From Marinicella sp. (GTDB taxonomy: Bacteria > Pseudomonadota > Gammaproteobacteria > Xanthomonadales > Marinicellaceae): a DNA stretch of 64,000 bases. The first letter of the stretch is position 1; each line of letters opens with the position of its first letter. Below the pieces are notes generated by a model. It was not told the DNA's origin. It worked only from the letters and a program-made list of their open reading frames with translations, and ran no database searches. The DNA is taken from positions 576,001-640,000 of the forward strand of contig OZ246001.1 of assembly GCA_965230295.1 (NCBI GenBank), in the 5' to 3' direction. This document shows, piece after piece, positions 889 through 56,899 of this stretch. A program made the translations under genes and the position numbers.

Positions 889-903
889 CGTGACTTATTC
901 GTA

Positions 904-1377
904 GGAAAGCTGCTGAGCAGCTTGACCCACCGAGCCGGTTAGCAAATCATGCAATAATGGCGGTTTTTCAAAGCAAAGAAGCCTTGATGTAATGATTGAT
1001 TAGCCGTGAGCTTTTGTTATAGCGGCCGCTATCGCTCCTAGCTATCGCGGCAGACCTACATCCATGTAGTCACCTCTGATACCGGCATCCTGCCTCCTCA
1101 GAGGACTTACTTCCATGTAAGCCAATCAGAGGCGAAGAGAATAGCCAATGAGCATATGGCGATTTGACGAAGTCAAGAAGCCTTATGTGAATGGCGTTAT
1201 AGCACAGGCAATGAAAGTTGGGCGGTTTTATCGAAGATAAAGAAGCCCGATTTGAATGCCGCAGTGCGTGCGAGGTAGCATGTCATGTTCGCCTCGGCAG
1301 CTACCGCATGGATCCCCAGGACGGGGTGAATGCAGAGAATTGTTGGGAACAATTGCAGGAAAGCCCCAGAACATACC
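904..1377 (+). other. Structured non-coding element, copy A (long form); ncRNA or ssDNA-structured repeat
   Basis: Shares 36/37 nt 5' end and a 24-nt identical block with 56739-56885, and a 34-nt identical block with 33116-33492; many hairpins; no credible ORF. Confidence 0.75.
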
Positions 1378-1481
1378 TTAAGTAACATGCTCAAACTTAT
1401 AATTAGCAAATTACCCCACTCTAATCACTCAATCGGAGCGACACTCACCATATATTCAAACTCCAGATCAGGAATAGTTAA

Positions 1482-17001: not shown

Positions 17002-17208
17002 ATGACAGATACAAAATTCATTGATTTAGAAACGCGCATTGCCTTTCTAGAAGATACGGTTGAAGCATTGAATAAGCTGGTCTATCAACAATCCAAGGAA
17101 ATTTCACAGTACCAACAAGCTTTGCAAGACATGACACAACACATGAAACAAGTGCAAAGTGATATTGAGGAGTTCAAGCCACAAAACGAAATTCCCCCCC
17201 ATTATTGA
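17002..17208 (+). CDS. slyX: SlyX family protein
   Basis: DLETRIAFLEDTVEALN...EIPPHY. Confidence 0.92.
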   Translation: MTDTKFIDLETRIAFLEDTVEALNKLVYQQSKEISQYQQALQDMTQHMKQVQSDIEEFKPQNEIPPHY

Positions 17209-17210
17209 TG

Positions 17211-17406
17211 GAATTCCGAGTTCGCTTCTTTTGACTATGCCAAAAACCGCAAACTCTTCATATATTTGATGAGTTTATTTCTGGATCACTCCGCTCACCA
17301 ACCATAAACATCGGCTGAATTCCGAGTTCGCTTCTTTTGCTACGCTAAAAACTGCCTATAAGGATGTAGGTATGCCGCGAGCGAATGGATGCAAAAGCGG
17401 TAAACT
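17211..17406 (+). repeat. Direct repeat pair; second copy carries a two-hairpin AYGGAY-like insert
   Basis: GAATTCCGAGTTCGCTTCTTTTG at 17211 and 17317; GCCTATAAGGATGTAGGT (17354) and CCGC..ATGGAT..GCGG (17375-17400). Confidence 0.7.
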
Positions 17407-32916: not shown

Positions 32917-33115
32917 CTAAATAAGCCAATTTATCAAAAGATTGTAGCTGCTTTAACGATGAAATATCAATCCTAAATCTAAAATTCTTGAAGCAAATCA
33001 CAGTTTTCTGGAGTCAAATGTACATGCATGAATCTTCATAAAAAACCGGGCATCTGACAACATGACCACTGCTTGGTGTAAAAATTGCCATGTTCTTTTA
33101 TTCAGTGACATCGTT

Positions 33116-33492
33116 GGAGAACTGTCGAACAGTTCGACCAGCGCAGGTAATGAAAGCTTGGTGGTTTACCTGATAAGGTAATAAGCCTTGCTTGAATACC
33201 ATAGCGCGTGCACTCGGTTAGGCAGATCATGTAAGAATGGCGATTTGACAAAGTCAAGAAGCCTTGATGGAATGATCGATAAGCCGTGAAGCCTCGCTGG
33301 TCGCTTCCGCATCGATCCCCAGAACGGGGTGAATGCAGAGAATTGTTGGGAACAATTCCTGCCTGCTCACGCGACAGACCTACATCCCTGTAGGCCAGCC
33401 AGAGGGTGTAAGCCCGAGATAGCAAGCCATGCCCGTCGAGGCCGTTTTCACTTTTGTTTCAACAAAAGTGAATGAAGTCCCAAGGGCATTCC
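33116..33492 (+). other. Structured non-coding element, copy B (divergent, rearranged modules)
   Basis: Same core as copies A and C with compensatory stem changes; shares modules with both. Confidence 0.75.
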
Positions 33493-33534
33493 TTTATAAT
33501 ATGACGTACAAATTTTAAATGGAGCTGCAAAACT

Positions 33535-43685: not shown

Positions 43686-43760
43686 GGACGCGTAGCTCAG
43701 CGGGAGAGCACTTCGTTGACATCGAAGGGGTCACTGGTTCAATCCCAGTCGTGTCCACCA
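43686..43760 (+). tRNA. tRNA-Val (GAC)
   Basis: GGACGCG/CGTGTCC acceptor, CTTCG-TTGACAT-CGAAG anticodon arm, GGTTCAATCC T-arm, encoded CCA. Confidence 0.98.
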
Positions 43761-56732: not shown

Positions 56733-56738
56733 CTCAAT

Positions 56739-56885
56739 GGAAAGCTGCTGAGCAGCTTGACCCGCCGAGCCGGTTGGTGAGCCTTGCGAAACAGAGGCGA
56801 AGAGCGCGAGGTAGCATGTCATGTTCGCCGTGGTCGCTTTCACTTTTGTCAGGAACAAAAGTGAATGAAGCCCCAAGAACATTCC
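56739..56885 (+). other. Structured non-coding element, copy C (minimal 147-nt form)
   Basis: Core blocks near-identical to copy A; TTCACTTTTGT/ACAAAAGTGAA hairpin shared with copy B. Confidence 0.75.
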
Positions 56886-56899
56886 TTAGTTAATGGCGC

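Follow-up and report, generated by a model that had tools for sequence, protein, structure and literature searches.

Three related intergenic stretches on one strand of the Marinicella sp. chromosome raise the question of whether they encode a structured non-coding RNA or represent a mobile element that acts as folded single-stranded DNA. They were identified in a 64,000-nt stretch of DNA (the window), which spans positions 576001–640000 of the 4,008,074-bp single-contig genome (G000). The original prediction, made from the letters of the window, left both readings side by side. All three plus-strand copies were found in the positions predicted, each being completed by a terminal TT, and the ordered core motifs and four compensatory stem changes listed for them are present. 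The coordinates of the copies, their parts and adjoining features are collected in Table 1.

Table 1. Positions of the elements, their structural parts and associated features. Numbers refer to the window unless the genome contig (G000:C1) is given.
Feature	Position	Strand	Description
Copy A	904–1379	+	Full-form element, colinear with positions 1–452 of the 633-nt form
5′ flank of copy A	900–903	+	CGTA
Module M1 of copy A	942–1005	+	Hairpin module branching off the 5′ strand of long hairpin P2
Module M3 of copy A	1144–1195	+	Hairpin module of the same type as M1 and M2
Module M2 of copy A	1207–1260	+	Hairpin module; stem GGCA/TGCC, exchanged for GGTA/TACC in copy B
REP-like 16-mer	1480–1630 (also 856–893)		Four copies of TGAGCGGAGTCGAAGC (at most 3 mismatches), adjoining copy A
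Weak R1 match	17208–17323	−	15.9 bits, E = 0.003
Copy B	33116–33494	+	Divergent subfamily with the same core
5′ flank of copy B	33112–33115	+	CGTT
tRNA gene	43686–43757	+	Sole Rfam gathering-level match in the window
Copy C	56739–56887	+	Minimal core element of 149 nt; 175 bits with the covariance model
5′ flank of copy C	56735–56738	+	CAAT, the C-N-N-N target-side motif
P1 of copy C	56742–56758	+	7-bp hairpin AAGCTGC/GCAGCTT, 3 nt from the 5′ end; 7/7 pairs covary
P2 of copy C	56763–56806	+	Long irregular hairpin with tandem G·A pairs and invariant GGTTGGTGAGC...GCGAAnCAGAGG
P3 of copy C	56821–56882	+	ATGTTC/GAACAT, 6/6 pairs covary; encloses the P4 hairpin and conserved GCCGTGGTCGCTTT and AATGAAGnCCCAAG
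P1-less tandem array	G000:C1:1313000–1313530		4.5 units of 122 nt
187-aa Y1 HUH gene	G000:C1:1669300–1669863		RAYT-like, single-copy, HVHLLF motif
315-aa Y1-like HUH gene	G000:C1:3171273–3172217	−	Long C-terminal extension, single-copy in G000

Size and architecture of the family

BLAST searches with the three window copies as queries returned 113 loci in the genome, and pairing of the 5′ and 3′ end motifs delimited at least 94 complete elements, so the expectation of many copies genome-wide was borne out. These 94 elements sum to 30,005 nt, equivalent to 0.75% of the 4.0-Mb genome, and young subfamilies are present among them. All copies are intergenic, 28 of the 94 complete ones being located between convergent genes. 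Lengths extend from a core of 147–149 nt to a full form of 633 nt, in which optional hairpin modules are added to the core; the size classes comprise 149 nt (n = 14), 150–151 nt (n = 5), 236 nt (n = 7) and 633–634 nt (n = 7), with further classes at 356, 420, 453 and 485 nt. The other repeats of at least 400 bp and at least 85% identity in the genome were three rRNA operons, about five TonB-dependent receptor paralogues and four β-helix paralogues, and a classical multicopy insertion sequence was not seen among these large repeats.

The core is organized as three imperfect hairpin domains, namely P1, P2 and P3/P4. In longer forms, modules are inserted at the apex and the internal loops of P2, between P3 and P4, and in P4; as they occupy only loops and junctions of the core, the core helices are kept. 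The units of 149–633 nt contain from three helices to the approximately twenty of the full form. Most hairpin loops consist of 3 nt (GAA, GCA or GTA) closed by C-G, a loop type known above all for forming very stable DNA hairpins. One recurrent hairpin module, whose internal loops (GRTTT / AAGAA) are conserved, is represented by three copies in the full form and by 94 across the genome; it harbours the originally listed GGCA/TGCC versus GGTA/TACC and AATCAT/ATGATT versus GATCAT/ATGATC changes. When all copies were mapped onto the 633-nt form, breakpoints recurred at its positions 37/42, 167, 219, 237, 299, 368, 391, 492, 516 and 609, and modules were found to be occasionally relocated or duplicated.

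Within the window, residues 1–451 of copy A match positions 1–452 of the 633-nt form at 97% identity, after which about 156 nt of the 3′ domain are absent and the 3′ terminus is slightly decayed. Copy B carries an M2-type module after P1 and a module of about 100 nt (CCCCAG..GGGG / AATTGTT..AACAATT) that is located in the apex of P2 and not in the 3′ domain. Short ORFs overlap copy A and are not conserved because the element varies by indels and modules, in line with the original view that no ORF is evident. A weak match to the covariance model described below holds the GGTTGGTGAGCGG motif as its reverse complement, with a direct repeat of GAATTCCGAGTTCG on both sides, and may be a decayed element fragment.

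A different arrangement was observed elsewhere in the genome, where a tandem array is made of units that each correspond to an element without P1. The array is followed, after about 40 nt, by a nucleoside transporter gene in the same orientation. Comparable P1-less arrays are found in G015, G031 and G008, and those of G000 and G015 are located just upstream of co-oriented genes. The genes between or beside paired elements or arrays proved unrelated (DoxX-like, MsrB, GST, nucleoside transporter, GH3, CysS, RF3 and PurF).

Fold and covariation

A core alignment was built from 51 copies (15 from this genome and 36 from other species) with a mean column identity of 86%. Both-side (compensatory) changes were found in 19 of its 42 consensus pairs across several species. 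The covariance model derived from these copies, R1, recovered more distant ones, and the 78 copies from several genera that were aligned to it showed changes on both sides in 37 of the 42 pairs, as well as 96.1% of paired cells compared with 33–44% when the partners were slid, with none of 500 shuffles reaching the observed values; as the model guided this alignment and many of its sequences are close kin, these 78-copy figures lean towards structure. The covariation anticipated from the three window copies was thus recovered in both larger alignments. Cells with G·U exceed those with A·C (67 versus 35, p = 0.002), besides two nearly invariant wobble pairs, and the 633-nt form folds better as the plus strand than as its complement (z of −7.0 versus −4.5), which together identify the strand as given as the folded one. 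The distant copies retain GGTTGG.GAGC...GCGA..CAGA, GCCG.GG.CG.TTT and AAG.C..AAG while their helices covary, and both covariation and conservation span the whole core, including the junction bases, rather than the ends alone. The fold is real and has been kept by compensatory change across genera that belong to several families of one gammaproteobacterial order.

The elements had not been recognized as a known RNA, and the Rfam searches agreed. At gathering level, Rfam 15 returned a tRNA gene only for the window and no match to the elements, and relaxing the threshold to E ≤ 10 brought up only chance-level matches of copy A and the 633-nt form to snoRNA, miRNA and lncRNA families.

A fold of this kind could belong to a multicopy structured RNA, either ribozyme-like, protein-binding or part of a 3′ or 5′ untranslated region, which would be selected at the RNA level and would have spread by an RNA-dependent route or by duplication. 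Such an RNA would explain the conservation over the whole length. It is also consistent with the strand specificity of the fold and its better score on the plus strand, with the conserved G·U pairs, tandem G·A pairs and invariant unpaired stretches that persist across families of the order, and with peripheral modules restricted to loops and junctions, as in large RNAs. The P1-less arrays just upstream of co-oriented genes likewise point in this direction. The orientation of the elements, examined below, bears directly on this reading.

Distribution among genomes

Within the genus, 18 of the 23 other genomes were BLAST-positive for the family, compared with none of 17 from other genera. Searches with R1, as originally suggested for related genomes, uncovered copies in the genus and beyond: positive results were obtained for 13 of 121 genomes of the order (4 of 55 genera), which comprise all nine sampled genomes of the genus and one genome each from three other genera in three families, whereas the 150 other genera sampled from the class were negative. 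The public records in which the 3′ motif occurs were titled Marinicella or gammaproteobacterial MAGs. A metagenome scan yielded nine loci, all of them ordinary short elements, and viral contigs gave no match to two core patterns. A literature search retrieved nothing on such elements in this genus, which is not mentioned in the main text of PMC11602168.

Orientation relative to replication and transcription

According to GC skew, replication starts near 1.71 Mb and ends near 3.82 Mb, in agreement with gene strand bias and the direction of the 16S genes. With this assignment, the folded strand corresponds to lagging-strand sequence in 69 of the 94 copies (p = 6e-6). The ratio of lagging to other orientation was 22:9 between two leading-strand genes and 15:3 between two lagging-strand genes, and the upstream gene was found on the same strand as the element in 52 copies and on the opposite strand in 42; the gene calls behind all these counts are crude ORF picks. 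Among young copies, defined as those with at least 94% identity to their nearest full-length relative, the bias reached 36:7 (84%) versus 33:18 for the rest (Fisher p = 0.06). As it is greater in young copies, it looks like a property of insertion and not the outcome of slow selection. The orientation of the elements follows the replication fork, not the neighbouring genes.

These data weigh against a structured RNA, in that orientation is unrelated to flanking genes and tracks replication instead; moreover, of the 31 elements flanked by leading-strand genes, 22 run antisense to the gene on either side. Promoters or terminators were not found in the elements above chance level, and no reverse transcriptase was found in the genome that could serve an RNA-dependent route. 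The unrelated nature of the genes adjoining the arrays, the lack of an Rfam family match and the C-G-closed loops familiar from DNA hairpins speak against it as well. We therefore regard the RNA reading as unlikely, albeit the most substantial of the competing explanations.

Insertion sites, ends and flanks

The convergent genes around copy C are separated by 185 nt, compared with 8–41 nt in five sister genomes (G012, G022, G017, G007 and G003), which lack the element at the orthologous site. Three copies of G001 are also missing at the orthologous site in four to five sister genomes each, in a comparison that provided 3 usable loci with flank identity of about 80%. One of these loci gave an exact junction, GGCCAT-element-TTTTT, opposite the empty site GGCCAT-TTTTT, without any duplication. 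The elements are insertions relative to the orthologous sites of sister species, and the search for empty sites envisaged in the original prediction was therefore successful for copy C and the three G001 copies. Over a 20-kb stretch with three elements, the contigs of three read runs are interrupted at the repeats and show no clean junction of an empty site.

The insertion with the exact junction sits between a terminator stem and its T-run, and the element together with the T-run could still be able to terminate transcription. Terminator targeting was considered and rejected: despite this one locus, upstream hairpins are no commoner than at random intergenic sites.

The ends of the 94 copies, GGAAAG... 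and ...CATTCCTT, are complementary only as GGA/TCC, and the flank bases are not repeated. The reported lack of terminal inverted repeats and target-site duplications thus held in the full set, and a MITE derived from a DDE transposase was discarded on both grounds. By contrast with the variable positions −3 to −1, position −4 of the 5′ flank is C in all three window copies and in 69 of the 94 copies (19% background, p = 1.6e-29). The same base occupies this position in 31 of the 39 copies taken from other species and in all 8 from the GC-rich genome G033. The last four bases of the element itself are CCTT, with the first C present in 94 of 94 copies, or CCGA in G033. As this repeats the CNNN pattern of the flank, both junctions read C-N-N-N immediately before the joint. 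Hairpins are subterminal at both ends, with P1 beginning 3 nt from the 5′ end and the foot of P3 lying 5 nt from the 3′ end.

If the host had domesticated these elements as BIME-, BOX- or ERIC-type repeats, they would owe their persistence to a role in the chromosome, for instance as binding sites for gyrase, IHF or a nucleoid protein, in protecting transcript 3′ ends or in termination, and their similarity within the genome to gene conversion instead of recent transposition. The strictly intergenic placement, the 28 copies between convergent genes, the mosaic modular makeup known from BIME and BOX, the insertion exactly between terminator stem and T-run, and the presence of the family in every one of the nine genomes that represent the genus in the order sample are all compatible with such a role. 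However, presence and absence at orthologous sites denote gain at new loci, upstream hairpins and terminators are not enriched, and a replication-strand bias that is strongest in the youngest copies argues for an insertion bias. A specific flank base, C at −4, is also hard to reconcile with a host function, and we consider domestication quite improbable.

Search for a mobilizing enzyme

Profile HMMs of the two element halves were used to look for an autonomous copy, and no 5′ half followed by a 3′ half at 0.7–6 kb was found in the genome. Neither was one present among 54 loci from other genomes and metagenomes, which included two 5′ halves without any 3′ partner. Pairs of ends 2–4 kb apart retrieved with loose regular expressions were spurious on inspection.

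A co-occurring HUH/RAYT or reverse transcriptase gene had been named among the things to look for. The genome contains two Y1 HUH genes, a RAYT-like one of 187 aa and one of 315 aa, but neither has ends or flanks resembling the element. For reverse transcriptases, PF00078 (RVT_1) had no match in G000.

The 187-aa gene scores 67 bits with NF047646, below the cut-off, and has no relative in G021, G024 and G033. It is flanked by small GACTTCAGTC-type hairpins and not by the structured element. The four copies of a REP-like 16-mer that adjoin copy A alternate in orientation and form REPIN-like pairs; the 16-mer occurs at 74 sites in the genome and is unrelated to the structured element. The RAYT-like gene may be the partner of this REP-like repeat rather than of the structured element.

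The 315-aa gene is carried on a unit of about 1.1 kb, the right end of which is a GCAGA..TCTGC hairpin. The ends of the unit are unrelated to the element and no R1 match was found nearby. This gene was detected by a motif screen only; it scores 24 bits with PF01797 and was missed by a six-frame PF01797 search. Absences in family searches such as the PF01797 profile of the genus are therefore unreliable, and the apparent lack of co-occurrence between Y1 genes and elements in that profile was dismissed, given that the same type of search had missed the gene in G000. In the order sample, 77 of 121 genomes carry the 315-aa family, many of them in several copies and with up to 29 matches per genome. 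It covers 13 of 13 element-bearing and 64 of 108 other genomes; this association is weak, because the family is also present in those 64 element-free genomes and 9 of the 13 positives come from one genus.

Among other enzyme families, PF07282 (TnpB) was absent from G000, and PF00239 revealed one resolvase there. PF04986 (Y2) gave no match in G000, with control genomes equally silent. PF01548, the DEDD recombinase of IS110, was not found in the element-rich genomes G000, G019 and G021 by a six-frame search of the type that missed the weak Y1 gene, and IS110/IS1111 elements with a bridge or seek RNA were rejected on this basis.

Proposed mechanism and implications

Taken together, the family is best explained as a new non-autonomous, strand-specifically folded mobile element, to which we assign a probability of roughly 0.55. 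It would follow the logic of IS200/IS605 elements or REPINs without qualifying as a member of either group. Given its IS200/IS605- or REPIN-like junctions, the four misfits with these systems detailed below and a competing RNA reading that finds no support in promoters or gene context, we file it among the non-autonomous, structure-dependent mobile repeats. Of the two alternatives in the original prediction, the structured single-stranded mobile element is thus favoured by the empty sites, the high copy number, the young subfamilies, the absence of ORF, inverted repeats and target duplication, and the replication-linked orientation, whereas the ncRNA or ribozyme gained no positive support, with promoters and terminators at chance level and no link to gene direction.

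In the mobile-element reading, a putative trans-acting enzyme would cut one strand after CNNN at both junctions, beside the feet of the P1 and P3 hairpins, and the folded strand would then be moved or copied in a replication-coupled step. This logic would be of the HUH type, as in IS200/IS605, REPIN/RAYT or rolling-circle systems, and the helices would be maintained by selection for recognition of the fold.

A bolder variant, which we view as a speculative outsider, posits a new class of mobile element in which the entire folded single strand is the functional unit and adopts the polarity of the nascent lagging strand on insertion, assisted by an unknown enzyme family or only by host replication and repair proteins. 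For example, folded single-stranded DNA might be joined between Okazaki fragments, or insertion might proceed through a nucleic-acid-catalysed or RNA-primed step. This would explain the covariation along the whole length, the junction bases that are invariant across families, the absence of an autonomous partner and a strand bias opposite to that of IS200/IS605; the core is more conserved than a transposase-binding end usually needs.

Descent from a class C group II intron, a group I intron or another retroelement, with loss of the ORF, is largely refuted and most improbable: the 633-nt size of the full form, its dense structure, the lack of target-site duplication, one insertion directly after a terminator hairpin and the replication-linked orientation would suit it, but Intron_gpI, Intron_gpII and group-II-D1D4 were not matched even at E ≤ 10, the element starts with GGA and not with the consensus GUGYG, RVT_1 is not matched in the genome, a general association with upstream hairpins is lacking, and a fixed guide pairing is unlikely because the 5′ flank varies at −1 to −3.

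The family indicates that gene-less repeats can exceed REPs, MITEs and PATEs in size and folding, reaching 633 nt and about twenty helices. It also supplies testable rules, namely a CNNN cut beside a hairpin at both junctions and the location of 84% of young copies on one replication strand. If the mobilizer belongs to the poorly understood long Y1 HUH proteins, the elements would provide a substrate for that family; if not, they would point to a new transposition route. In practice, the R1 covariance model allows intergenic screens of the genomes concerned to tell these elements apart from true ncRNA candidates.

Comparison with known systems

Integron attC sites, the core sites of which read RYYYAAC ... 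GTTRRRY, were rejected because the element ends do not fit this pattern on either strand. Class C group II introns insert after terminator hairpins and resemble the element in the absence of target-site duplication and in its one insertion between a terminator stem and the T-run. Unlike them, the element carries no intron RNA signature (domain V/VI, D1–D4), has no reverse transcriptase and shows no general association with hairpins.

BOX of Streptococcus pneumoniae, BIMEs and the ERIC sequences of enterobacteria are modular, mosaic intergenic repeats with predicted stable folds. They share with the element a fixed module order with optional or repeated internal modules, but are unrelated in sequence and shorter. 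To our knowledge, they have no flank rule or replication-strand bias comparable to those of the element.

REP and REPIN sequences with their RAYT enzymes are likewise abundant intergenic palindromic repeats whose hairpins are kept by compensatory change, and for which a single-copy Y1 gene could act in trans; the genome studied here also possesses a classical REP-like family and a RAYT-like gene. According to PMC3733652, REPs are single hairpins of 20–40 nt with a GTAG or CGTC head, and RAYT genes are flanked by their own REPs, as described in PMC6006769. The unit reported here measures 149–633 nt, and the flanks of the RAYT-like gene are unlike the element.

Close parallels are the PATEs of IS200/IS605 and the peel-and-paste elements IS608 and ISDra2, which also lack inverted ends and target duplication and have hairpins near both ends. 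Further common points are insertion on the 3′ side of a flank motif that recurs in the final bases of the element itself, a strong orientation bias relative to the replication fork and the presence of Y1 HUH genes in the genome. Four differences stand out. IS200/IS605 elements require a fixed target of 4–5 nt, whereas only the C at −4 is fixed here. A PATE has the ends of an autonomous insertion sequence encoding a Y1 TnpA, but no such partner of the element was found. The active strand of IS608 is excised from and inserted into the lagging-strand template, according to PMC5027513. If the folded strand is the transferred one, the present family follows the reverse rule, with this strand lying on the leading-strand template in 69 of the 94 copies. 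Finally, the whole 149-nt core is conserved and covarying in this family, and modules extend it to up to 633 nt.
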